11,216 nucleotides of DNA from a bacterium (GTDB taxonomy: Bacteria > Sysuimicrobiota > Sysuimicrobiia > Sysuimicrobiales > Humicultoraceae). The stretch covers positions 1 through 11,216 of the forward strand of contig JBGQGY010000117.1 of the NCBI GenBank assembly GCA_041497675.1, written 5' to 3'. Shown here one piece after another: positions 1-11,216 of the stretch. Below the pieces are notes generated by a model. It was not told where the DNA came from and searched no databases. It worked only from the letters and a program-made list of their open reading frames with translations. The stretch's first letter is position 1, and each line of letters starts with the position of its first letter. A program made the position numbers and the translations under genes.

Positions 1-1
1 G

Positions 2-1252
2 GAAGGCATCGTCTTCCCACCCATGAAGATCCAACTCGACAGGGACTGGGAAGACAGCCCCTTCGGCAAGTTCTTCCGCGCCAACATCCGTGTGCCGGAA
101 AAGACGATCCCGGACTTCAACGCGCAGATCGCCGCGTGCCGAACAGGTGAGGCGCGCGTGGCCGCGCTGTGCCGCAAGTATGGAAAAGCCACGATCGTGG
201 AGTTCCAGCAGGAAATCCAGCACTACTCCGAACGCATCATCCGTGGCGCCATCGACGCCATCCCCGACGGCGACTACTTCGGCGAAGCCTATATGGAGGA
301 TGACGGCACGGGCGCGACCGGGCCGTTCACGATCCGCGTGACGGTGAAGATCCGCGGGTCGGACATGCTCCTGGATTTTACCGGCACCGACGCGCAGGTG
401 AAAGGGTTCATCAACATCCCGGTCGCCTCGACCTATGCGACCTGCCGGACGACAATTATGTCGATCCTGCAGGCCGGGCACCTGCTGGTCAACGCCGGTG
501 CGTTTCGCCCGATCCAGGTCGTAGCACCGCCCGGCACGCTGGTGAACCCGGCGCGGCCTGCGGCGACGCGGGCCCGCACAAGCACTTGCTACAAGATATT
601 TGACGCCGTCAACTATGCGCTGGCCGCGGTCATGCCCGAAAAGGTGATCGCGCCGGGATTTGACTGCCAGACCGGCGTGTCGATGGCCCTACGCCGTGAG
701 GGACGCCTCAGCGTCATCTCGGAGGTCCTCGGCGCCGGTGTCGGCGCGCTCTACAATCAGGACGGCGCCGACGGGATGATCATGCACCTCACCAACGGCA
801 TGAACACCCCCGTCGAATCGGTCGAGATCGAATTCCCCTTCATCGAAATCCTGCGCTACGGGCTGGTCCAAGACTCCGCCGGCCCCGGTAAGTTCCGCGG
901 CGGGCTGGGGATGGAGCGCAAGTACCGCATCCTGGCGGACGGGGTCAACTTCGGCCTGCACTCGGACCGGCACCACCATTCGGCCACGGGCCTCTTTGGC
1001 GGCACCGGCGGCGCGCCGGGCGCCTGTTTCGTGGAACGCGGCGGGCAGGTGATCCATCTCGGCTCGAAGGTCTCGACCACCCTGCGGGCGGGCGACATTC
1101 TCACGGTGCGGTCGGGCGGCGGCGCCGGCTACCGTCCCGTGGCGGAACGCGATCCGGCGTCCATCGAGCGCGATATTCGGGAGGAACGCATCACCGTCGA
1201 GCACGCCGCACGCGTGTACGGCCGCACGGCGCGCGCGGGTGTGCCCGCCTAG
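2..1252 (+). CDS. Hydantoinase B/oxoprolinase family protein, 5'-truncated by the window edge
   Basis: The frame is open from position 2 (EGIVFPPMK, matching the family EGxxxPP motif), so ATG 23 is probably internal. Family motifs include IPDGDY.GE..MEDDG, LDFTGTDAQVKGFIN, GTLVNP.RPA, NTPVESVEIEFP, DSAGPGKFRGGLG and SGGGAGY...ERDP. Stop is TAG at 1250-1252. Confidence 0.92.
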   Translation, partial: EGIVFPPMKIQLDRDWEDSPFGKFFRANIRVPEKTIPDFNAQIAACRTGEARVAALCRKYGKATIVEFQQEIQHYSERIIRGAIDAIPDGDYFGEAYMEDDGTGATGPFTIRVTVKIRGSDMLLDFTGTDAQVKGFINIPVASTYATCRTTIMSILQAGHLLVNAGAFRPIQVVAPPGTLVNPARPAATRARTSTCYKIFDAVNYALAAVMPEKVIAPGFDCQTGVSMALRREGRLSVISEVLGAGVGALYNQDGADGMIMHLTNGMNTPVESVEIEFPFIEILRYGLVQDSAGPGKFRGGLGMERKYRILADGVNFGLHSDRHHHSATGLFGGTGGAPGACFVERGGQVIHLGSKVSTTLRAGDILTVRSGGGAGYRPVAERDPASIERDIREERITVEHAARVYGRTARAGVPA

Positions 1253-1262
1253 CCCCGCCGGC

Positions 1263-2543
1263 ATGCCGCGTTCGCGGCTGACCCCCACCTTTCTGATCGG
1301 CACCGGTCAGACCGTCGTCGGCGCGGCCGTGGCGCCGCTGGTCCCCCTCTATGCCGTGTCCATGGGCGCCACACCGGCTGTGGTCGGGATGGTGGCGGCC
1401 TCGAGTGCGCTCCTGCCGCTGCTGCTCGGCGTCTGGGCGGGCGCGGCGGTCGACGCCGTCGGGTCCCGCCGATTGTCGATCGCCGGCAGCGCAGTGTTGG
1501 TGGTCGCGGTCGCGGTGCTCGCTATGGCGCGCAGCATCGGCTGGCTGATACTGGGTCAGGCGCTGTCCGGGCTGGCCGGCACCATGCTGATCGTCTCGTG
1601 CCAGACCTCGGTGGCTCAGGCCAGCACCGACGATGATCGCGACCGCAACTTCGGGTTCTTCGCGTTCTGGGTCTCGCTGGGTCAGATGATCGGGCCGCTC
1701 ATCGGCGGCTTCGTGGCGGACGGGTTTTCCATCCCAACGGCATTCGCGGTCTCCGCCGTGATGGCCGCGGCGCCAGGAGTGCTGGCGTTCCGCATGCCTC
1801 CGGTCAAGGAGATCTCCGCCACGTTCGATCCCGTCGGCCAGGCGCTGCGCGACCGTAACGCCTACCAGGCGGCCTGGCAACTCGCGCGCCGGCGGGATCT
1901 CATGTTCCTGATGCTGGTGACCTTCATCATCATCTTTGCGTGGAGCATTCGCACGAGCTTCTACCCACTCTATCTGCAATCGGTCGGGCTATCGAAGACG
2001 TCGATCGGGTTAATCTATTCCTTTCTCGGTGGATCGTCGATGATCGTGCGGCCCCTCGTCGGTACCATCACGGGCCGTCTGGGCCGCCGGCGTATCCTCA
2101 TGATCGCGCTGGCGCTGGCGACGTTTGGCATCGGGGTGACACCGCTCTTGAAGACCCTGTGGCCGCTGGCGCTTGCCGTGGCCACGACAGGTGTCGCATT
2201 CGGCTTCACCCAGCCGCTGACGATGAGCATGATGGCGGGAAATGTCGGCCCGCGCGAGCGGGGACTCGCGCTGAGCCTGCGGATGACCAGCAACCGCCTG
2301 GCCGAGGTGGTGAGCCCGGTGCTGTTCGGCGCGGCGGTCGCGTTGGCCGGTCTGGGGAGCGCGTTCTATCTGGCGGCCGGGGTGCTGGCCGCGGGGATCT
2401 GGGCGATCAGCCGCGGCGCGATCGACGCCGTCGCGGCGGGGACGGCGGGAGCGCAAACCGGTACGGCGGTTCCAATCCCTCGGGCACCCCAAGGCGTTGA
2501 GCCGCAAGTGCAGCCTTCACCCGCTCCACCTGATCGCGGATAA
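1263..2543 (+). CDS. Major facilitator superfamily transporter
   Basis: About 12 hydrophobic segments in two halves, with motif-A-like loops GAAVDAVGSRR and GTITGRLGRRR, plus GQMIGPLIGG and ERGLALSL. ATG 1263 is preferred over GTG 1239, which overlaps the upstream gene. No clear RBS, so the start is uncertain. Confidence 0.9.
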   Translation: MPRSRLTPTFLIGTGQTVVGAAVAPLVPLYAVSMGATPAVVGMVAASSALLPLLLGVWAGAAVDAVGSRRLSIAGSAVLVVAVAVLAMARSIGWLILGQALSGLAGTMLIVSCQTSVAQASTDDDRDRNFGFFAFWVSLGQMIGPLIGGFVADGFSIPTAFAVSAVMAAAPGVLAFRMPPVKEISATFDPVGQALRDRNAYQAAWQLARRRDLMFLMLVTFIIIFAWSIRTSFYPLYLQSVGLSKTSIGLIYSFLGGSSMIVRPLVGTITGRLGRRRILMIALALATFGIGVTPLLKTLWPLALAVATTGVAFGFTQPLTMSMMAGNVGPRERGLALSLRMTSNRLAEVVSPVLFGAAVALAGLGSAFYLAAGVLAAGIWAISRGAIDAVAAGTAGAQTGTAVPIPRAPQGVEPQVQPSPAPPDRG

Positions 2544-2616
2544 ACGCCAGGTCGTCGTCGCTCAGCGCGAGCCCGTGCGCCGCGGACTCGCCGCGCCAGT
2601 CACGCTCGGGCGGCAT
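2407..2616 (-). CDS. Small (69 aa) putative amidase partner protein, AtzG/HpxX/GatC-like
   Basis: ATG at 2616-2614 is preceded by AAGGAGG with a 9-nt spacer and overlaps the amidase 3' end by 17 nt. Product MPPERDWRGESAAHGLALSDDDLAFIRDQVERVKAALAAQRLGVPEGLEPPYRFALP... shows an A-x-x-G-L-x-L segment, an amphipathic helix and an EP-x-x-x-F tail, like small amidase subunits. Confidence 0.7.
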   Translation of the reverse strand: MPPERDWRGESAAHGLALSDDDLAFIRDQVERVKAALAAQRLGVPEGLEPPYRFALPPSPPRRRRSRRG

Positions 2617-4030
2617 GGGCCTCTGCCTCCTTGACGGCGGGTCGCCGTTCGTGCCACGACGTGGCCTGCTCGTAGGCGTGCGCGACGCGGAACAGCATGG
2701 CTTCATCGAACGCCTTCGCCGCAAACTGCAACCCGACCGGCAGCCCCGCACGCGTAAAGCCGCATGGAATGGTGATCGCCGGGTGGCCGGACAGATTGAA
2801 CTGCCGCGTCCCCCACGACGTATCCGGTGGACCGGGCTGTTGCTGTTGCACTTCTATGGTGAAGGCCGCGTGGGGCAGCGTCGGCATGACCAGCGCATCG
2901 ACCTTCTGCAGCACCTGATCCACCTCGGCCACCCACAACCGGCGAATCTGAAGCGCGTGCTGATACTCGGCGGCCGAGTAGAAGGCGCCACAGGAGATCC
3001 GGCGCCGCGATCGTGCACCGTAATCGGCGGCCTGCCGGCGCAGCCGCGCCGCATGCGCGCCAAACGACTCGGTCGCGATGATCACCGTATACGCGGGCTC
3101 GAGCTGCCCGGCGCGTGGCAGGCTGACGGGTTCAAGTCGCGCACCCTGCGATTCGAGCTCGCGCAGCGCCGCGCGCACCGCGCGGTCGACCTCGGGGTCG
3201 AGCCCGTCGTAGTAGTGGTGCTCTGGGACGCCGAGGATCATGCCTTTGAGGCCCTTCTTCAAGTCCGCGGTGAAGTCCGGCACCCGCACGCGCGCCGTTG
3301 ACGGATCGAGCGGGTCGAACCCGGCCATGGCGTTCAGCAGCAGCGCGCAGTCGCGGACGGTGCGCGCCATCGGTCCCGCGTGGTCCAGACTCCAGGACAG
3401 CGCGATGACGCCGTGCCGGCTGACGCGGCCGTACGTCGGCTTGAGGCCGACGATGCCGCAGAAACTGGAAGGGACGCGAATCGATCCGCCGGTATCCGAC
3501 CCGGTCGCGGCGACCGCGAGGCCCGAGGCCAGCGCGCTGGCTGACCCTGCGCTCGAACCTCCGGTGTAGTGCGACAGGTTCCACGGATTGCGGGCGACGC
3601 CGAAGACCTCCATGCCCCCGTTGGCAAACTCGGTCGTGTTGGTCTTGCCGAGCATGATCATGCCGGCACGCGAGAGCCGCGCCACATGTGTCGCGTCATG
3701 CTCGGGGACGAACTCGAGCAAGGTGCGCGAATGGGCCGTCGTTCTCACGCCGCGCGTCCACGAGATGTCTTTGTGTGAAATCGGAAGGCCGTGGAGCGGG
3801 CCGCGGCGCCGGCCGGCCCGAATATCGCGCTCGGCCCGCCGCGCGGTCTCGAGCGCCGATTCGCCGCAGACGGTAATGTAACTGTGCAGCGCGCCGTCGA
3901 CGCGATCGATCCGGTCGAGCAACGCGCTGACGATTTCGACCGGAGACACTTTCCGGCGCGCAACCAGTTCAGACAAATGCGACAGAGAGAAAAAAGGCAA
4001 ATCCGATGCTGCCTGTGTCGTGTGCCGCAT
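2600..4030 (-). CDS. Amidase signature family protein (GatA/AtzE-like amidase)
   Basis: Catalytic Lys in GPLHGLPISHKD, GKTNTTEFA, signature GGSSAGSASALASG, nucleophile region GSDTGGSIRVPSSFCGIVGLKPTYGRVS, and C-terminal GLPVGLQF...DEAMLFRVAHAYEQ. Start placed at ATG 4030 because homology begins at DLPFFSLSHLSELV. The upstream ATG at 4105 is less likely. Confidence 0.95.
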   Translation of the reverse strand: MRHTTQAASDLPFFSLSHLSELVARRKVSPVEIVSALLDRIDRVDGALHSYITVCGESALETARRAERDIRAGRRRGPLHGLPISHKDISWTRGVRTTAHSRTLLEFVPEHDATHVARLSRAGMIMLGKTNTTEFANGGMEVFGVARNPWNLSHYTGGSSAGSASALASGLAVAATGSDTGGSIRVPSSFCGIVGLKPTYGRVSRHGVIALSWSLDHAGPMARTVRDCALLLNAMAGFDPLDPSTARVRVPDFTADLKKGLKGMILGVPEHHYYDGLDPEVDRAVRAALRELESQGARLEPVSLPRAGQLEPAYTVIIATESFGAHAARLRRQAADYGARSRRRISCGAFYSAAEYQHALQIRRLWVAEVDQVLQKVDALVMPTLPHAAFTIEVQQQQPGPPDTSWGTRQFNLSGHPAITIPCGFTRAGLPVGLQFAAKAFDEAMLFRVAHAYEQATSWHERRPAVKEAEAHAARA

Positions 4031-4137
4031 GGTGATACGCAACTTCGCCCCGACGCACGCGAGCCCTGCAGGAGTCCCGTGGCCATCAGGGAAGTTCTGC
4101 ATCATTCAGGTGAGCGGCATCGGGAGGGGGGCCCTGC
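4031..4137. promoter_or_regulatory. 107-bp divergent intergenic region (amidase vs ABC operon) containing the RBS of the binding-protein gene
   Basis: It lies between head-to-head genes, so promoters for both directions are expected here. GGAGG at 4123-4127 precedes ATG 4138. An imperfect inverted pair occupies 4032-4046 and 4091-4105. No consensus -35/-10 elements could be assigned. Confidence 0.55.
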
Positions 4138-5706
4138 ATGCGTAACGGACGGTTCTCTGTAGCCATTTGGCTGGTGCTTGTGGCTCTGCTGGTCCTGTCA
4201 TTTGGTCCGAGCTCGGGGGCAGGCCCGGCGCGCGGCACCAAGATCGTGGTCGGCATCGACACCGATCCACCGTCGTTGGACGCACACTCCAACACCAATC
4301 TGGCCAGCGACCAGATGTTCGCCCATCTCTACGACAGACTGGTCATGTTCGACATGCGGTCGAACATCGTGCCGCAGCTGGCGACCGAATGGAGCGTCTC
4401 GAACAACGGTCTCACGTGGACCTTCAAGCTGCGCCGGGGCCACAAGTTCCACGACGGTACGCCCGTCAACGCCGCGGCAGTGAAGGCGAGCTTCGAGCGT
4501 CTGTTCGACCCGCGGAACCCGTTCTCGCGGCGCACGATATTCGAGATGATCAAACGCATCGACGTCGTCGACGAGAACACCGTGGCCTTTACCACCGACA
4601 AGCCCTTCGGCGCTATGCTCAACAACATGGCCAACCCGTCGGCGTCCATCGTGAGCCCCACTGCGGCGGCCAAGCAGGACGTGAACACCTTCGGGCGGTT
4701 CCCAGTCGGCTCGGGGCCATTCTTCTTTAGGGAGTGGGTGCGCGGGACGCGTATCGTGTTGCAGAAGAACCCCGCCCACTGGCTGGCGTCTCAGACAAAC
4801 ATCACGGAGATCGAGTTTCGGCCCATCCCCGACGACGCCACCCGCGCGATCGGGCTAGAGACCGGCGAGCTCGACTTCGTCACGACGATAGCTCCACAGG
4901 AAGCCAAACGGCTGGCCGGTAATCCCAATCTGGTCGTGTACAACCTGCCCCGCGCGCGCATCCAGGGTCTGTATCCCAACCTGACCAAAAAGCCGTGGAG
5001 CGACCTGCGGGTGCGGCAGGCGATGGCGTACGCGATCGACAACCGGGCCATCGTCGACACGTTCCTGGCGGGCTTCGCCCGGGTGGCCGATTCGCCGTTG
5101 GCGCCCGGTGTCTTCCCGTATAAGCCGCAAGCTACCCGCTACAACTACGATCCGGAACGGGCGAAGAAGCTCCTGGCCGAGGCCGGATACCCCAACGGCT
5201 TCTCCGCGTCGATGTGGGTCCCGGTGGGCTCGTACGCGGCGGCGCAGCAGATCTCCGAAGCCGTTGCCGAGATGTTGAAGAAGGTCGGCATCAACCTGAA
5301 GCTCGAGGTAATGGAAAGCGGTCAGTGGCTCGTGCTGCTGCGGTCAAAGGGCCCCAAGGAATCCACACTGGACATGACCTACTACGGTTGGGGGACCCAG
5401 ACCGGCGAGGCGGACTACGCGCTGCGGCTGGTGTTCCACACCGACAACTTTGCGCCGGCCTGCTGCAACAGGAACTTCTACTCGAACCCCGAGCTCGACT
5501 CGCTCCTCGACAAGGCGCTGGGGACGACGAACGTGGCGGAGCGGCGCGCCGCCTACGAGCGCGCGCAGGAGATCCTCTGGCGTGATCTGCCGTGGATCTG
5601 GATCTTCACAGTCAACCACTCGGCGGTCGGCACCAAAGCCCTGACGGGCGCCGCGCTGCTGCCAGTGGAGTTGATTCACTTCAGGGACGCAAATATCTCG
5701 CGCTAG
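4138..5706 (+). CDS. ABC transporter substrate-binding protein, family 5 (DppA/OppA/GsiB-like)
   Basis: N-terminal signal peptide without a lipobox Cys. Family-5 signature PQLATEWSVSNNGLTWTFKLRRGHKFHDGTPVNAAAVKASFER, plus PVGSGPF, VRQAMAYAID and YDPERAKKLLAEAGYPNGF. The segment YYGWGTQTGEADYAL resembles glutathione-binding GsiB-type proteins. Confidence 0.95.
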   Translation: MRNGRFSVAIWLVLVALLVLSFGPSSGAGPARGTKIVVGIDTDPPSLDAHSNTNLASDQMFAHLYDRLVMFDMRSNIVPQLATEWSVSNNGLTWTFKLRRGHKFHDGTPVNAAAVKASFERLFDPRNPFSRRTIFEMIKRIDVVDENTVAFTTDKPFGAMLNNMANPSASIVSPTAAAKQDVNTFGRFPVGSGPFFFREWVRGTRIVLQKNPAHWLASQTNITEIEFRPIPDDATRAIGLETGELDFVTTIAPQEAKRLAGNPNLVVYNLPRARIQGLYPNLTKKPWSDLRVRQAMAYAIDNRAIVDTFLAGFARVADSPLAPGVFPYKPQATRYNYDPERAKKLLAEAGYPNGFSASMWVPVGSYAAAQQISEAVAEMLKKVGINLKLEVMESGQWLVLLRSKGPKESTLDMTYYGWGTQTGEADYALRLVFHTDNFAPACCNRNFYSNPELDSLLDKALGTTNVAERRAAYERAQEILWRDLPWIWIFTVNHSAVGTKALTGAALLPVELIHFRDANISR

Positions 5707-5722
5707 CGACTAACGGCCATAA

Positions 5723-5770
5723 GCGCCACGCGGCAGCCCCGGGCGTTCCTCGGGGCTGTTGCTTAGGCGC
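5723..5770 (+). other. Intercistronic stem-loop after the binding-protein gene (mRNA stabiliser or partial terminator)
   Basis: 5730-5743 (GCGGCAGCCCCGGG) pairs with 5749-5762 (CTCGGGGCTGTTGC): 14 bp including 3 G-U pairs, with a 5-nt loop. An outer stem GCGCC 5723-5727 / GGCGC 5766-5770 extends it. No U-tract follows. Confidence 0.7.
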
Positions 5771-5796
5771 CGGTCGGACGGCAAGGGAGCCCCGTG

Positions 5797-6717
5797 ATGT
5801 CCGCGTTCGTGATACGGCGGTTTGCCGAAGGAATCCTCACCGTCTTCGGCCTGTCGCTGCTGGTGTTTCTCTCCCTCCACCTGGCGCCCGGTGACCCGGC
5901 GGCGATTATCGCGGGAAACCAGGCCAGAGAGGAGGAGCTGGTCATCATCCGCCAGCGTTATGGCTTGAACGACGCGTTGCCCGTGCAGTACCTGCGCTGG
6001 GTCGGCCGCGTCCTGAGGGGCGACTTTGGGATCTCACACTTCGGCGAGCGGCCGATCGGACCGGATCTCGCGCAGGCGTTCCCGATCAGTCTCAGCCTGG
6101 CCCTGGGCGGGCTGGTCGTCGCGGTCGCCCTAGGGATTCCGGCAGGCGTGCTTGCGGCCGTCCGCCGGGACGGCCTGCTGGACCTAGGCATCATGGGCCT
6201 AGCCGTGGCGGGGATGTCCATGCCGGTGTTCTGGGTGTCGCTGCTCGCCATCTTGCTCTTCTCCCTTCGTCTGGGCTGGCTCCCGTCGTCCGGTTGGGGC
6301 ACGCTCCCCCACTACATCCTGCCGATGCTCTCTGTGAGCCTCGCGAGTCTGGCGCTGTTGGCGCGCATGACCCGATCGTTGATGGTCGAACTGCTTCTCG
6401 AGGATTTTGTCCGCACGGCCCGCGCCAAGGGACTGGCGGCACGCGTCGTCTTCTACAAGCACGCGCTGCGAAATGCGCTCCCTCCACTCGCAACGGTCAT
6501 CGGGTTGCGTCTTGGCCTGCTGGTCGGGGGGGCGGTGATCACCGAGACGGTCTTCGCGATCCCGGGCCTCGGGCGGATGATCGTCTACGCGGTGAACACG
6601 CGCGACTTCCCGGTGGTGCAGGGTGGCGTGCTCCTGATCGCGCTGGCGGTGATCGCTGTCAACTTCGCCGTGGACCTCCTGTACCTGCTCCTCGATCCGC
6701 GCATTCGTTACGCTTGA
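5797..6717 (+). CDS. Peptide/nickel-type ABC transporter permease (DppB/OppB-like)
   Basis: Motifs LHLAPGDPA, YGLNDALPVQYLRWVGRVLRGDFGIS, EAA-type loop DFVRTARAKGL...HALRNAL, ITETVFAIPGLG, RDFPVVQG and LDPRI. RBS AAGGGAG at 5783-5789. GTG 5794 is an alternative start. Confidence 0.95.
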   Translation: MSAFVIRRFAEGILTVFGLSLLVFLSLHLAPGDPAAIIAGNQAREEELVIIRQRYGLNDALPVQYLRWVGRVLRGDFGISHFGERPIGPDLAQAFPISLSLALGGLVVAVALGIPAGVLAAVRRDGLLDLGIMGLAVAGMSMPVFWVSLLAILLFSLRLGWLPSSGWGTLPHYILPMLSVSLASLALLARMTRSLMVELLLEDFVRTARAKGLAARVVFYKHALRNALPPLATVIGLRLGLLVGGAVITETVFAIPGLGRMIVYAVNTRDFPVVQGGVLLIALAVIAVNFAVDLLYLLLDPRIRYA

Positions 6718-6726
6718 GGGGACCCG

Positions 6727-7563
6727 TTGCGCTGGACTGCATTGTTCAAATCAACGCCCGGCCTCGTCGGCATGCTCATCGTCGTGCTCTTCCTCGGTAT
6801 GGCCGCGCTGGCACCCGTGATCGCCCCGTCCGACCCGACGTCTCAAACGCTGAGCAAGGCCTTGTCGCCTCCGGGGCGTGGGGGGTACCTGCTGGGGAGT
6901 GATGAGCTCGGCCGCGATACTCTGACCCGCATCATCTACGGGTCGCGGATCTCGCTGGCGATCGGCGTTGCGGCGGTGGCATTCGGCGTGCTCCTCGGCA
7001 TTCCGCTGGGCATCGCGTCCGGATTCTACGGCGGCCTCTTCGACAGCGCGGCGATGCGGATCTCGGACATCCTGCTCGCGATCCCGCGGCTGCTGCTGGG
7101 TATCACGATCGTGGCGACCTGGGGTATCGGGTTCTGGACCCTCGTCGTTGCCATCGGGTTTCCCGACGTGCCCACCTTCGCGCGCTTGGTGCGCGGATCG
7201 ACCCTAACGGTCTCACAGATGGAATACGTGACCGCGGCTCGTGCCCTCGGGTCGCCGGATTCGCGGATCATGCGGCGCCACATCTTGCCCAACCTCATCG
7301 GGCCGATCACCGTGCAATCCACGTTCTCGATGGCCGCGGCCATCCTGACGGCCGGGGGCCTGAGCTTTCTCGGCCTCGGTGTCCGGCCGCCGACGCCCGA
7401 ATGGGGCTACATGCTCGCACAGGCACGGTCATACATGCGCGTCGCCCCTCACCTGATCACGTTTCCCGGCATTGCCCTGGCGATCGTCGTCCTGGGGATC
7501 AACCTTCTCGGAGATGCGCTTCGGCAGGCATACGATCCCCGATTCCGCGGGAAAGAGGCATGA
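6727..7563 (+). CDS. Peptide/nickel-type ABC transporter permease (DppC/OppC-like)
   Basis: Motifs LLGSDELGRDTLTRIIYGSRISL, EYVTAARALG....IMRRHILPN, LSFLGLGVRPPTPEWG and NLLGDALR.AYDPR. TTG start preceded by GAGGGG. Confidence 0.95.
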   Translation: MRWTALFKSTPGLVGMLIVVLFLGMAALAPVIAPSDPTSQTLSKALSPPGRGGYLLGSDELGRDTLTRIIYGSRISLAIGVAAVAFGVLLGIPLGIASGFYGGLFDSAAMRISDILLAIPRLLLGITIVATWGIGFWTLVVAIGFPDVPTFARLVRGSTLTVSQMEYVTAARALGSPDSRIMRRHILPNLIGPITVQSTFSMAAAILTAGGLSFLGLGVRPPTPEWGYMLAQARSYMRVAPHLITFPGIALAIVVLGINLLGDALRQAYDPRFRGKEA

Positions 7564-7635
7564 GAAGACGGTACCACGACCTCGCAGCAGGAGCGCCGGT
7601 CGGTGTACGAGAAGGCCCAAGAGATCTCCCGATAG
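7560..7635 (+). pseudogene. Probable collapsed remnant of a second family-5 substrate-binding protein gene
   Basis: 7576-7635 translates to TTSQQERRSVYEKAQEISR*. It matches TTNVAERRAAYERAQEI (5524-5574) at 11 of 17 residues and then the terminal ISR* (5695-5706) of the intact binding protein. Confidence 0.55.
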
Positions 7636-7681
7636 CCTCACCCACCGATCCCGTATGAACCCCGTTTTTCGGGGAGGAGGC

Positions 7682-8857
7682 ATGACTGTGGCCAAAGAGG
7701 CACCCAGCCGGCAAATCACCTACAAGCCGGTGATGACTGACGAGATGATCGATGCCGCCGTCTCGGTCCTGAAGAGCGGCAAGTACATCCGCAGCTACCC
7801 GTTGGAGGACTCGCACGGCAAGCGGTTCGAGGACGACTTCTGCGCGTACATCGGCTCGAAGCACGCGGTGAATGTCTCCAGCGGCACGGCCGCGATGCAC
7901 CTAGCGCTGTTGGCGGTCGGCGTGGGTCCTGGCGATGAGGTCATCACGGTCCCCAACACCTTTTCCTCGGTGGCCGACGTGATCATCCTCTGCGGCGCCC
8001 GGCCCGTCCTCGTGGACGTGGAGCCGGACACCTACAACATGGACGTCCGGCTCGTCGAGCGCGCGGTCACGCCGCGTACGAAAGCCATCATGCCCGTGCA
8101 CATGAACGGGCACGCGGTCGACATGGACCCGTTGATGGACATCGCGCGCCGCCACACGTTGAAGGTGGTCGAGGACGTCTGCCACGCCGCCGGGGCAAGG
8201 TACAAAGGCCGCGCGCTCGGCACCATCGGCGATGCCGGTTGCTTCTCCTTCGTCCAAAACAAGTGCATCTCGGTCGGAGGCGAAGGTGGCATGGTCGTGA
8301 CCGACGACCCGGTCGTCTGGGAGCAGTGTATGATGCGGGCCAATCACGGGCGCGGCCGCCGATGGTTCGCCGGGCACAAGTCCCAGCACGTGTACCAGGC
8401 GCAGCAGATCGAGGTCGTCGGGTTCAACTTCCGGCAGAACGAGATGCTCTCGGCCATCGGCCGGATCCAGCTGCGCTATCTCGACGAGTGGAATGCGAAG
8501 CGGCGGGCAAACGCCGAGCTCTACCAGCGGCTGCTGCGCGACGTGCCGCACGATCTGACGCTCCCCACGACGAAGCCGTACACGACCCACAGCATGCTGC
8601 GGTTCGTGGCCCAGACCCCTCAACGCGACGCGCTCAAGGCGCACATGGAGCGCAACGGCGTGCACATCATGGTCGAATACGGCACGCCGATCCACCTCGA
8701 CCACGCGTACCAGCCCTACTGCGGCGCGCCTGAAGGTACGTTCCCGGTGACCGAGCGCCTGGCGCAGACTATTCTCACCTTTCCGTGCTACCAAACGCTC
8801 GGTCCAGACGACATTCACTATGTCGTTGACACTATCAAGAGCTTCTACACGCACTGA
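7682..8857 (+). CDS. DegT/DnrJ/EryC1/StrS family PLP-dependent aminotransferase (copy 1)
   Basis: Motifs VSSGTAAMHLAL..GVGPGDEVIT, TKAIMPVHMNG, VVEDVCHAAGA, canonical SFVQNK (Lys at 8261-8263) followed by GGEGG, and GFNFR. RBS GGAGGAGG at 7673-7680 supports ATG 7682 or GTG 7688. Confidence 0.95.
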   Translation: MTVAKEAPSRQITYKPVMTDEMIDAAVSVLKSGKYIRSYPLEDSHGKRFEDDFCAYIGSKHAVNVSSGTAAMHLALLAVGVGPGDEVITVPNTFSSVADVIILCGARPVLVDVEPDTYNMDVRLVERAVTPRTKAIMPVHMNGHAVDMDPLMDIARRHTLKVVEDVCHAAGARYKGRALGTIGDAGCFSFVQNKCISVGGEGGMVVTDDPVVWEQCMMRANHGRGRRWFAGHKSQHVYQAQQIEVVGFNFRQNEMLSAIGRIQLRYLDEWNAKRRANAELYQRLLRDVPHDLTLPTTKPYTTHSMLRFVAQTPQRDALKAHMERNGVHIMVEYGTPIHLDHAYQPYCGAPEGTFPVTERLAQTILTFPCYQTLGPDDIHYVVDTIKSFYTH

Positions 8858-8881
8858 GACAGACCGCCGGGGAGGGTCTTC

Positions 8882-10000
8882 GTGGCAAAGGTTCAGCGTC
8901 GCATCACCTCACGCCTGACTGTCATCGATGACGAGGTCCGCGAGACGGTCTTGCGCGTGCTCGAACGCACCCCCTACTACGCCGGACCTGAAACCGCGGC
9001 GTTCGAATCCGAAGTCGCCGCCTACTGCGGCGTCGGGTTTGGCGTCGCGGCCAATTCGGGCACGTCGTCCCTGCTGCTGGCCCTGCTGGCGCGCGGCATC
9101 GGGGCCGGGGATGAAGTGATCGTGCCGACCAACACCTTCGTGTCGGTGCCAGAGTGCGTGCTCTTCGTCGGGGCGAGTCTGGTGCTGACCGATGTGGAGC
9201 CGGACGGCAACGTGAGCAGCGCCATCATCGAGCGCCACCTGACGCCCCGCACGCGCGCGGTGATCCCGGTGCACATGTTTGGACATCCGGTCGACATGGA
9301 TCCCATCATGGACCTGGCCCGCGATAACGGCCTCTTCGTCGTCGAAGACGCGGCGCACGCCCTGGGCGCGCGCTACAAAGAGCGGCGCGCCGGCTCGCTG
9401 GGACACGTCGGGTTCTTCAGCTTCGCGGGGAAATCGATCACGGTGTGCGGGCAGGCCGGCATGGCGGTGACGGCCGACCCCGACCTCGCCGCGGGCATGG
9501 CGGCGCGGCGCGTCCACGGGTGGAATCAAAAGGTGGGGAACGTCTGGCACGCCGCCGAGCGTCTCGGACTCAACCTGCGCACCAGCGAGCTGCTGTCCGC
9601 GATCGGCCGGGTCAACCTGCGCCGGCTCGACGGGTGGACCGCGGCGCGGGCCTCAAACGCGGCCAGGTACACGGCGCGCCTGTCGGTCGCACGCGTGCCC
9701 GTGATCCTGCCGGCCACGCGCCCGGATCAAGAGCCGGGATGGTTGCACTATGTCATCCGGACGCCGCGTCGAGACGCGTTGCGGGTCTTTCTCAACGACC
9801 GCGGGATCGAAACGCAGATCCACTATCCGGTCCCCCTCCACCGCCAGCCCGCGTTTCAGCACCCGGCGCGAGATTCATCGGCGTTTCCGGTCGCCGAGGC
9901 CATGACCGCCGACATGCTGACGCTGCCGTCGCATCCGTGGATGGCGCCCGATGAGGTCGACGCGGTCGCGGATGCCGTGATCGACTTCTCTCGGGGGTGA
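8882..10000 (+). CDS. DegT/DnrJ/EryC1/StrS family PLP-dependent aminotransferase (copy 2, atypical Lys loop)
   Basis: Motifs NSGTSSLLLAL..GIGAGDEVIVP, AVIPVHMFGHP, VVEDAAHALGA, SFAGKSITVCGQAG, GLNLR and HYPVPLHRQPAF. GTG start with GGAGG at 8871-8875. Confidence 0.93.
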   Translation: MAKVQRRITSRLTVIDDEVRETVLRVLERTPYYAGPETAAFESEVAAYCGVGFGVAANSGTSSLLLALLARGIGAGDEVIVPTNTFVSVPECVLFVGASLVLTDVEPDGNVSSAIIERHLTPRTRAVIPVHMFGHPVDMDPIMDLARDNGLFVVEDAAHALGARYKERRAGSLGHVGFFSFAGKSITVCGQAGMAVTADPDLAAGMAARRVHGWNQKVGNVWHAAERLGLNLRTSELLSAIGRVNLRRLDGWTAARASNAARYTARLSVARVPVILPATRPDQEPGWLHYVIRTPRRDALRVFLNDRGIETQIHYPVPLHRQPAFQHPARDSSAFPVAEAMTADMLTLPSHPWMAPDEVDAVADAVIDFSRG

Positions 10001-10007
10001 GGCGACG

Positions 10008-11135
10008 ATGGCAACCGCGACCCGCTACCGGACGACCTGGACGCCCTTCGACGCTGAGATGCGTGAGGCGATGCTGCGGCCCACGCCGGGGCCGATCTAC
10101 TACGACGGCCCCGAGTGCGACGCCTTCGAGCGCGAGATGGCGGCGTATCTCGGCGCCCGCCACGCGGTGGCCGTGTCGTCCGGCACTGCGGCGCTTCACG
10201 CGGCGATGCGGGCCATGGAGATCGGCCCGGGGCACGAGGTGATCTGCCCCGCCAACGGCTACCTGAGCGCGGCCGAGTGCGTCCTCAACGCCGGCGCGCG
10301 GCCGGTGTACTGCGACGTGCTGGAATCGACTGCGAACATGGACATCACCACGATCGAACCGCTGGTCACCCCGAAGACGAAAGCCATCATCATCATTCAT
10401 ACATACGGGCACGCCGTCGACATGGACCCCATTATGGACCTGGCGCGGCACCGCAACATCTTGGTCATCGAGGACGCGGCGCACGCGTTGGGCGGCGAGT
10501 ACAAGGGGCGCAAACTCGGGACGATCGCGGATCTCGGCTTCGCGAGCTTCGCCCGCAAGTGCGTCACGGTCGCGGGTCAGGGCGGGATGACGTTCACCGA
10601 CAACGCGACGTGGGCGGACCGCATGGTCAGGCTGCGCCGCCACGGGTGGGACCGCACCGACCCGTACCGCAGCGAGGTCTCGCTTATCGGGTTTAACGCC
10701 GTCATGAACGAGAGCCAGGCCGCGGTGGGGCGAGTGTCGCTGTCACGCCTCGACCGGCACAACGCGGCGCGGGCGCAGAACGCGCGCCGCTACACCGAGG
10801 GGCTCTCGACCCGGGGGCTCCCCGCGAAGCCGTTTGCGATCATGCCGTGGGCGAAACACGGCTGGCTGCACTACGTCGTGCGGGTGCCGCGGCGCGACGG
10901 GCTCATGGACTTCCTGGCGGCGAAGGGCACGGAGTGCGCGATCCACTACCGGCAGCCCGTCTACCGGGCGCCGGCCTACGTCGCGCGTGCCGGTGAGGAC
11001 CCCGGGCCGCGACCGGTGACCGACCGGCTCGTGGAAGAGATCGTGACCCTCCCATCGCACCCCGAGATGGGCGATGGCATCGAGATCGTCTTGGATCAAA
11101 TGGCCGAATTCTACGCGCGCCCGGGGCGCGGGTAA
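10008..11135 (+). CDS. DegT/DnrJ/EryC1/StrS family PLP-dependent aminotransferase (copy 3, atypical Lys loop)
   Basis: Motifs VSSGTAALHAAM..IGPGHEVICP, TKAIIIIHTYGH, VIEDAAHALGG, SFARKCVTVAGQGG and GFN. ATG lies 7 nt after the upstream stop, with GGTGAGG as RBS. Confidence 0.93.
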   Translation: MATATRYRTTWTPFDAEMREAMLRPTPGPIYYDGPECDAFEREMAAYLGARHAVAVSSGTAALHAAMRAMEIGPGHEVICPANGYLSAAECVLNAGARPVYCDVLESTANMDITTIEPLVTPKTKAIIIIHTYGHAVDMDPIMDLARHRNILVIEDAAHALGGEYKGRKLGTIADLGFASFARKCVTVAGQGGMTFTDNATWADRMVRLRRHGWDRTDPYRSEVSLIGFNAVMNESQAAVGRVSLSRLDRHNAARAQNARRYTEGLSTRGLPAKPFAIMPWAKHGWLHYVVRVPRRDGLMDFLAAKGTECAIHYRQPVYRAPAYVARAGEDPGPRPVTDRLVEEIVTLPSHPEMGDGIEIVLDQMAEFYARPGRG

Positions 11136-11137
11136 CG

Positions 11138-11216
11138 ATGCCGGCGGCCTGGCAGGATCGCTACATCGATGTCGACGGTATCCGCAGCCACTATCTGGAA
11201 GCCGGTAAGGGCGACA
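11138..11216 (+). CDS. Probable alpha/beta-fold hydrolase, 3'-truncated by the window edge
   Basis: ATG 2 nt after the aminotransferase stop. It translates to MPAAWQDRYIDVDGIRSHYLEAGKGD, the typical N-terminal strands that precede the (V/L)LLHG motif of alpha/beta hydrolases. Only 26 codons are visible. Confidence 0.7.
   Translation, partial: MPAAWQDRYIDVDGIRSHYLEAGKGD

Follow-up and report, generated by a model that had tools for sequence, protein, structure and literature searches.

A conserved gene island of Sysuimicrobiota with three DegT-family aminotransferases, a Dpp-type importer and amide-opening enzymes: a candidate route for nitrogen scavenging

Enzymes of the DegT/DnrJ/EryC1/StrS family (hereafter DegT), which depend on pyridoxal phosphate (PLP), are annotated nearly everywhere as builders of amino sugars. 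The glutamine:scyllo-inosose aminotransferases and NtdA/KabA, which make kanosamine, are biosynthetic as well, and show that free cyclitols and sugar phosphates are within reach of the family. The pathway that degrades creatinine and N-methylhydantoin (creatininase, N-methylhydantoinase and N-carbamoylsarcosine amidase) has no DegT step, and the aminotransferase of caprolactam catabolism in Pseudomonas jessenii reportedly belongs to another class. Here, we analyzed an 11,216-nucleotide (nt) stretch of DNA from a member of the Sysuimicrobiota (GenBank assembly GCA_041497675.1, contig JBGQGY010000117.1, positions 1 to 11,216 of the forward strand), referred to below as the window. It carries three tandem DegT-family genes (DegT1, DegT2 and DegT3), which share a gene string with a nutrient importer and with enzymes that open amide bonds, and for that reason these aminotransferases probably serve here to remove nitrogen from a compound that the cell imports. 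Our preferred reading, held with modest confidence, is that the window forms one module of a catabolic, nitrogen-scavenging island, in which the DegT enzymes would deaminate a compound that has been imported and unmasked by hydrolases. As far as sampled, this gene island is confined to the Sysuimicrobiota (CSP1-3).

Linkage of the DegT genes to hydantoinase, amidase and importer genes

Among 94 genomes of the phylum, orthologs of DegT1 (at least 71% identity) were found in 17, namely the window genome and 16 others (71–92% identity). An ortholog of HydB, the hydantoinase B subunit encoded at the left end of the window (E-value of at most 1e-120), was present in 16 of these 17 genomes and in 3 of the 77 genomes that have no DegT1, one of the three being 59% complete; these counts are given without a p-value, since related genomes are not independent. 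In 12 relatives, DegT1 and HydB lie on a single contig at a distance of 2.6–8.9 kb. Outside this lineage, homologs of the solute-binding protein (SBP), the permeases, HydA/B or the amidase were absent from all of 66 DegT loci (31–41% identity), for which as much as 10 kb to either side was inspected. The window itself is an entire contig (C117) of a 3.97-Mb metagenome-assembled genome (MAG) in 272 contigs, which derives from an uncultured sediment bacterium. Its genes were called from six-frame open reading frames (ORFs) and from Pfam and NCBIfam profile scans of the window:

2..1252, + strand: HydB, Hydantoinase_B/oxoprolinase subunit (PF02538, 343 bits, profile positions 143–516 of 519); 5' end truncated at the contig end
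1239..2543, + strand: major facilitator superfamily (MFS) transporter, MFS_1 (PF07690, 181 bits); 14-nt overlap with the HydB stop
2600..4105, - strand: amidase-signature amidase (PF01425, 387 bits); likely start ATG 4030; divergent to the importer
4138..5706, + strand: family-5 (Dpp/Gsi-type) SBP (PF00496, SBP_bac_5, 332 bits)
5794..6717, + strand: permB, ABC permease of DppB/GsiC type (PF00528, 144 bits, and PF19300)
6727..7563, + strand: permC, ABC permease of DppC/GsiD type (PF00528, 111 bits, and PF12911)
7564..7681, + strand: spacer of 118 nt; a relic-like copy of an SBP-gene 3' end and the ribosome-binding site of DegT1
7682..8857, + strand: DegT1, DegT/DnrJ/EryC1/StrS-family PLP aminotransferase (PF01041, 378 bits); ATG preceded by GGAGGAGG
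8882..10000, + strand: DegT2, paralogous DegT-family aminotransferase (PF01041, 329 bits)
10008..11135, + strand: DegT3, paralogous DegT-family aminotransferase (PF01041, 325 bits)
11138..11216, + strand: alpha/beta hydrolase, first 26 codons only (from translation); remainder on contig C70

An earlier note on this DNA, made from the sequence alone, had described a family-5 importer followed by three same-strand DegT genes and a divergent amidase, and ORFs, Pfam and NCBIfam place all of these genes where it put them. Its ABC importer consists of the SBP and two permeases, but ATPase genes are absent. The alpha/beta hydrolase that it saw abutting DegT3 does begin at 11138, but only its first 26 codons fall within the window. 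The boundary that it drew at 2600 has to be moved: HydB (2–1252) and the MFS gene (1239–2543) belong to the conserved unit, and HydAB and MFS co-occur with DegT1. A minus-strand ORF at 10743–11216 was rejected as a gene, being antisense to DegT3 and without a family match.

We compared the window with 13 related loci (L028–L040), 12 of which hold a DegT1 ortholog. Among the closest is that of Candidatus Fervidifonticultor quartus, which NCBI assigns to Candidatus Sysuimicrobiota (formerly CSP1-3) and which has the same family code (f1) as the window genome. The full order HydA-HydB-MFS-amidase(-)-SBP-permB-permC-DegT1-2-3-hydrolase is found in three loci (L029, L030 and L035), and three others (L028, L034 and L036) show the same order in part, cut by contig ends. 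Six loci (L031–L033 and L037–L039) share a second order, HydB(-)HydA(-)/DegT1-[DegT3]-amidase-DegT, in which DegT3 is present only in some and additional DegTs come after the amidase; Pfam annotation of two of these six adds a PIG-L deacetylase, a D-2-hydroxyacid dehydrogenase, an asparaginase and an IclR regulator, and one of the two (L039) has a branched-chain-type (Peripla_BP_6) importer in place of the Dpp type. In 9 of the 12 related loci, an ortholog of the amidase is found no farther than 10 kb from DegT1; orthologs of the MFS gene occupy the same position in L029, L030 and L035, and orthologs of the alpha/beta hydrolase follow DegT3 in these three loci and in L028. Overall, the enzymes kept alongside the DegTs are hydantoinase A/B, amidase, D-2-hydroxyacid dehydrogenase, asparaginase, PIG-L deacetylase and a creatininase-family protein, the last of which stands in a sister DegT module and scores under both NCBIfam cut-offs. 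In genome G032, a module of the window type and one of the type found on contig C60 of the window genome are fused into one island with six DegT genes (40 kb examined), and the two types of module adjoin in G001 and G011. Genome G019, flagged as unpublished, supplies loci L014, L036 and L040 and rows on relatives, packing and co-occurrence, and G010, also flagged as unpublished, supplies tally rows only; no conclusion depends on either alone. As side observations, the DegT1 ortholog of G011 (L025:10060-11232, contig C145 of that genome) has one in-frame TAG and is a pseudogene or an assembly error, and in Ca. Fervidifonticultor quartus (L030:14248-17089) a DegT, a phosphotriesterase-family and an isochorismatase-family gene come after the hydrolase on the other strand.

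From the SBP through the hydrolase all genes run in one direction, separated by 87, 9, 118, 24, 7 and 2 nt, and the link of an ABC importer to multiple DegT genes that the earlier note had wished to see in relatives is both kept and tightly packed there. In L035, the permease TGA overlaps the DegT1 ATG (ATGA); DegT1 starts 3–5 nt past the permease stop in L029, L030 and L036, and about 26 nt past it in L034. A separate promoter in the 118-nt spacer (7564–7681) was the finding that would have told against co-transcription; a scan of 3900–11216 gave one promoter-like and three terminator-like sites, not above shuffled sequences, and none of them within the spacer, which also folds no better than shuffles (z-score 0.88); a look for RNA runs that contain the locus listed none. 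The spacer contains a stretch that resembles the final codons and stop of an SBP gene (ATCTCCCGATAG; window 7564–7681, L028:1570-1680). Because it aligns with the junction between the SBP end and DegT1 in G001, a genome in which permB and permC are absent, it looks like a rearrangement relic, and the mechanism looks like deletion or duplication via recombination between the SBP gene end and its relic. A hairpin, CCCCG-UUUUU-CGGGG, lies at 7655–7681 with its 3' arm overlapping the ribosome-binding site of DegT1; it has no U-tail and is therefore not terminator-like. In the divergent region between the amidase and the SBP, the palindrome CCTGCAGG at 4063–4072 occupies the same column in 3 of 4 aligned genomes (including L029 and L035) and is a possible operator.

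The DegT enzymes and their paralogs

DegT1–3 share 39–46% pairwise identity and are full-length members of PF01041, scoring far above its cut-off of 19.8 bits, with profile matches that start at positions 3, 4 and 19 and end at 349–359 of 360. Residues K194, D165 and S67-G68-T69 (DegT1 numbering), presumably the Schiff-base lysine, the PLP-contacting aspartate and the Ser-Gly-Thr of the family, are invariant in the three-way alignment. The His-for-Lys change, which marks the dehydratase members of the family, is found in none of the three. Since the Lys, Asp and Ser-Gly-Thr positions are kept in all of them, DegT1–3 look active. None reaches the cut-off of a named NCBIfam aminotransferase model (PseC, ArnB, WecE, LegC, DesI or RfbH); the best is PseC, with scores of 256.5, 228.7 and 220.5 for DegT1, DegT2 and DegT3 against a cut-off of 423.5. 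The best solved relative is 7b0d, a glutamine-scyllo-inositol transaminase, for DegT1 (2.1e-78) and DegT3 (1.2e-61), and 2oga for DegT2 (8.1e-76), which was deposited as 'Transaminase' and which we take to be DesV; QdtB and perosamine synthase are also among the best solved relatives. The DegT1 subfamily is rare, because few of its 150 best matches among 1.84 billion representatives reach 47–50% identity (5, two of them over part of the query), the others being lower. Look-alikes in the ESM Atlas were generic DegT clusters only.

The window genome has 13 DegT genes in 8 loci. Seven relatives have 5–12 DegT matches per genome, and most others of the family 1–3. Nine of the 13 genes (on C117, C60, C22, C55 and C12) adjoin genes of Dpp-type importers, in company with hydrolases, oxidoreductases and regulators of LacI/GntR type; three stand in classical glycan clusters (C13 and C2, with glycosyltransferases, a flippase, Bac_transf and an ABC-2 exporter), and one lies at a contig end. 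We placed these 13 in a tree of 106 rows with 20 DegT sequences from four relatives and 73 from other lineages. DegT1, DegT2, DegT3 and two copies from C60 fall into a 24-row clade that contains this phylum only (SH-like approximate likelihood ratio test [SH-aLRT] support 98) and divides into six orthogroups; five of these are represented in two families of the phylum. Within the clade, DegT2 and DegT3 group as sisters (SH-aLRT 97), each in an orthogroup of its own, and that of DegT3 includes the second family (L024_9751). The three DegTs from glycan clusters fall in the opposite half of the tree, among other phyla.

Neither the window operon nor C70 contains an inositol or inosose dehydrogenase or a cyclitol-forming partner; GFO/IDH/MocA oxidoreductases occur in other DegT modules only (C22, C55 and G001). 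Two of these other modules deserve description. On C22 (L108:8241-16739), a DegT pair is accompanied by M24 peptidase-family and AstE/AspA-family genes, two class I/II aminotransferases and Ldh_2; we take the M24 and AstE/AspA pair to resemble two enzymes of ectoine breakdown, ectoine hydrolase and N-acetyl-diaminobutyrate deacetylase. On C55 (L111:2-7038), consecutive genes encode a LacI-type regulator, a TIM barrel similar to xylose isomerase, an oxidoreductase of the GFO/IDH/MocA family, a DegT and a family-5 SBP, an arrangement that resembles inositol or inosose handling.

Joined flanks, hydrolases and importer

The window meets two other contigs of the MAG at its ends. Contig C70 (reverse-complemented) overlaps its last 306 nt with 4 mismatches (C70:19201-19506), and C157 (reverse-complemented) ends inside its first 141 nt with 100% identity (C157:1-141); these two overlaps suggest that the contig breaks reflect strain variation and assembler k-mer ends, not real gaps. 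The two halves of HydB are complementary, covering profile positions 1–187 on C157 and 143–516 in the window, and the gene order of relatives agrees with the inferred joins. Logan contigs from all four public sediment runs extend beyond the end of C70 by 1,005–7,477 nt, and in all four they carry non-C70 letters at two of the four sites at which the window and C70 mismatch. The joined neighborhood reads as follows:

Left: Dpp-type importer (- strand), then D-2-hydroxyacid dehydrogenase, HydA, HydB and MFS (+ strand)
Middle: amidase (- strand), then SBP, permB, permC, DegT1-3, alpha/beta hydrolase and GntR/FCD (+ strand)
Right: convergent cupin, DeoC aldolase, dihydrodipicolinate synthase (DHDPS)-family protein, ApbA, enolase-superfamily enzyme, and a complete Dpp-type importer with two ATPases

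The earlier note had found no nucleotidyltransferase, nucleoside diphosphate (NDP)-sugar dehydratase, glycosyltransferase or flippase in the window, and had looked to the genes past 11216 to separate sugar catabolism from polysaccharide synthesis. The absence holds for the window and also for C70 (19.5 kb) and C157 (6.8 kb), about 26 kb of joined flanks, which likewise contain no initiating transferase. On C70, polysaccharide-synthesis genes are absent as well, and the convergent set to the right of GntR/FCD resembles sugar-acid catabolism, with a second Dpp-type importer. What follows downstream is the alpha/beta hydrolase, the GntR/FCD regulator and this convergent set, so that no glycan cluster begins at this locus.

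HydA (PF01968 and PF05378) and HydB (PF02538) are paired, which places them among the ATP-dependent, ring-opening amidohydrolases of the hydantoinase/oxoprolinase A/B family. C157 carries HydA and the HydB N-terminus, and complete pairs are present in L025 and L026; for the complete HydB ortholog, the best solved relatives are the N-methylhydantoinase 7hk5 (3.6e-72) and the hydantoinase 6yra. The caprolactamase subunit models are the best NCBIfam matches of HydA and HydB, yet score 507 and 230 against a cut-off of 1000. The amidase was considered as the GatA of this genome and rejected, as it scores 360 on TIGR00132 against a cut-off of 481 and has 12 paralogs in the genome. It also resembles the peptide amidase 1m21/5ac3. 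The complete alpha/beta hydrolase (280 aa, on C70; L009:18437-19279, - strand) matches Abhydrolase_1 and Abhydrolase_6, and its best solved relatives are meta-cleavage-product C-C hydrolases (4lxg, 4.8e-25). Such enzymes (BphD, HsaD and DxnB2) have a Gly-Asn-Ser-x-Gly-Gly nucleophile motif, a catalytic Asp and a His-Trp pair. In our alignment, GNSHGG and the His match, the position of the catalytic Asp holds Asn (with an adjacent Glu), and a second His stands where the His-Trp pair would have its Trp; on the HsaD model the score is 88, with a cut-off of 400.

The SBP bears an N-terminal signal peptide, and together with two BPD_transp_1 permeases it constitutes an importer of the Dpp/Opp/Gsi (peptide/nickel) type. 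Its best solved relative is YliB/GsiB 1uqw (9.2e-95), and it scores under the cut-offs of both the GsiB model (NF011942, 350.8 against 594) and the DppA model. A Pfam scan of the window found no ATPase gene with an oligo_HPY C-terminal region in the importer operon. Across the genome, we counted 93 places with an SBP of family 5, 88 with permB and 93 with permC (274 Dpp-type places), against only 13 with a DppD/F-type ATPase, and such an ATPase gene lies within 3 kb of only 8 of the 93 permC places. Most Dpp-type importers would have to share few ATPases. With about 93 importers and 13 matching ATPase genes in the genome, adjacency of an importer to DegT genes is by itself weaker evidence than it appears.

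Proposed pathway, rival explanations and known systems

Gene content, intact motifs, linkage, co-occurrence and paralog phylogeny were observed directly; the direction of the reaction, the order of the steps and the sharing of ATPases in the following pathway are proposed. A nitrogen-rich compound would be bound by the secreted family-5 SBP and imported via the two permeases, with energy from one of the genome's few DppD/F ATPase pairs, whose genes lie elsewhere. The amide or lactam bonds that mask its nitrogen would be opened by the ATP-dependent HydA/B, the amidase and the alpha/beta hydrolase. The three non-redundant DegTs would then deaminate the product, each passing a different secondary-carbon amino group to 2-oxoglutarate or pyruvate, to yield glutamate or alanine and keto compounds for further breakdown, and the GntR/FCD protein may regulate the set. 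As for the substrate, the amino sugars or aminocyclitols favored by the earlier note are one candidate, and small amino-lactams or ureides are equally good ones: judged by HydAB, the amidase, the asparaginase, the creatininase-family protein and the 2-hydroxyacid dehydrogenase, and by the exchange of the importer type in L039, small lactams, amides or ureides would fit at least as well. A broader proposal, which we put forward tentatively, is that DegTs which radiated within this phylum into at least six orthogroups were recruited from glycan synthesis into catabolism. Together with an ATP-dependent lactamase, amidases and deacetylases, they would strip nitrogen stepwise from poly-aminated compounds masked by amides, such as amino sugars, aminocyclitols or molecules like aminoglycosides, which would enter by way of ATPase-less Dpp-type importers.

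A number of points weigh against the nitrogen-scavenging reading. Some concern the data: the contigs were joined by inference, a crude GC3-based caller picked the ORFs of flanks and related loci, the tree is a quick IQ-TREE with SH-aLRT support only, and its outgroup rows, collected by a pattern search that started from DegT1, are thus a biased sample. The others coincide with what rival explanations would predict. First among these rivals is biosynthesis, in which the DegTs would aminate keto intermediates on the way to a small aminated product (a metabolite or solute of aminocyclitol or amino-sugar type), with the MFS protein as its exporter and the importer as a neighbor or a means of re-uptake. 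To our knowledge, every characterized DegT-family member is biosynthetic, as are all the matching named models and solved relatives of DegT1–3. The best NCBIfam matches of the MFS gene are of efflux type, weak and all far under cut-off, and sister modules hold an NAD-dependent epimerase/dehydratase (of the short-chain dehydrogenase/reductase type) and a PIG-L deacetylase, enzymes also found in amino-sugar and aminoglycoside biosynthesis. We nevertheless consider biosynthesis unlikely: scaffold-forming enzymes, nucleotidyltransferases, glycosyltransferases and flippases are absent from the window, the joined contigs and the Pfam-annotated related loci; the companions are hydrolases (HydAB, amidase, asparaginase and the creatininase family) with GntR, IclR and LacI-type regulators; the permease–DegT1 junction overlaps or nearly abuts in four relatives; and the real glycan clusters of the genome employ DegTs of other clades.

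Less probable still is a mosaic of unrelated operons, in which the DegT triplet landed beside the importer by chance and would serve the cell envelope by acting on nucleotide sugars that the cell makes itself. Dpp-type genes make up 6.75% of the genome bases, so that chance adjacency is not negligible, and paralogous importer–DegT modules are not independent events; in addition, the window has the 118-nt gap ahead of DegT1, the putative rearrangement relic, and G001, a genome of the same genus, lacks the two permeases between SBP and DegT1. A chance arrangement is difficult to reconcile, however, with linkage kept in two families of the phylum and in two gene orders, with the company that HydB keeps with DegT1 (16 of 17 genomes against 3 of 77), with the absence of the importer link from all 66 loci outside the lineage, or with the finding that in 4 of the 8 DegT loci no more than 300 nt separate a DegT from a Dpp-type gene, as compared with 1.7% of 20,000 random 1.1-kb segments.

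We do not know of DegT-family enzymes that take alpha-amino acids as their main substrate. Use of peptides or glutathione-like thiols, with the amidase and hydrolase as peptidases and the DegTs acting on amino-acid-like products, is accordingly very improbable: GsiB/YliB and HbpA are the nearest named SBP relatives, the amidase resembles a peptide amidase, and peptide uptake is stressed for the phylum in passages of PMC11962464 and PMC11604079, but the SBP reaches 351 of the 594 demanded by the GsiB model, and three to six conserved, non-redundant DegT orthogroups would be left unexplained.

In our searches of the literature, judged by titles and the beginnings of abstracts, we found no described pathway with this layout, of which the earlier note had not known either, nor a DegT catabolic pathway or a relevant link between DegT and hydantoinase. 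The main texts of the two phylum papers (PMC11962464 and PMC11604079) do not mention aminotransferase, DegT, amino sugar, hydantoinase or ABC transporter, and their supplementary datasets may list such genes. The broader proposal, if true, would give the DegT family its first catabolic role and describe a new type of pathway. If a whole DegT clade runs in the deaminating direction on imported compounds, the annotations of abundant uncultured bacteria of soils, sediments and hot springs would misread nitrogen scavenging as cell-wall synthesis. It would also suggest a route for recycling amino-sugar-like or lactam nitrogen, which makes up a large pool in soils and sediments, and provide a source of new transaminases for secondary amines. 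The analysis moreover exposes an unusual transporter economy, with some 90 SBP/permease sets for about a dozen ATPase genes.

Among known systems, E. coli GsiABCD and DppABCDF share the families of the family-5 SBP and the two permeases, but the window operon has no ATPase genes and its SBP stays under the GsiB and DppA cut-offs. The NDP-sugar aminotransferases (PseC, ArnB, WecE, DesV, QdtB and perosamine synthase) belong to the same Pfam family as DegT1–3, match them with E-values of 27–79 orders and have the same Lys, Asp and Ser-Gly-Thr; DegT1–3 differ in falling under the named cut-offs, in having no nucleotide-sugar or glycosyltransferase context and in forming a clade apart from the genome's own glycan DegTs. 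The scyllo-inosose aminotransferases (7b0d, 2c7t and 5w70) and NtdA/KabA include the best solved match of DegT1 and DegT3, but the identity is modest and the operon has no inosose-forming or 3-dehydrogenase partner. Caprolactam catabolism in P. jessenii (PMC6061476) follows the same logic, in that an ATP-dependent HydA/B-type lactamase opens the ring, after which the amino group so released is taken off by an aminotransferase; HydA and HydB of the present locus are far under the caprolactamase cut-offs, and that pathway is not known to have an SBP importer or multiple paralogous transaminases. Creatinine and N-methylhydantoin degradation has parallels in several genes, with 7hk5 as the best solved relative of HydB, creatininase-family genes in a sister module and the isochorismatase-family gene downstream in L030.

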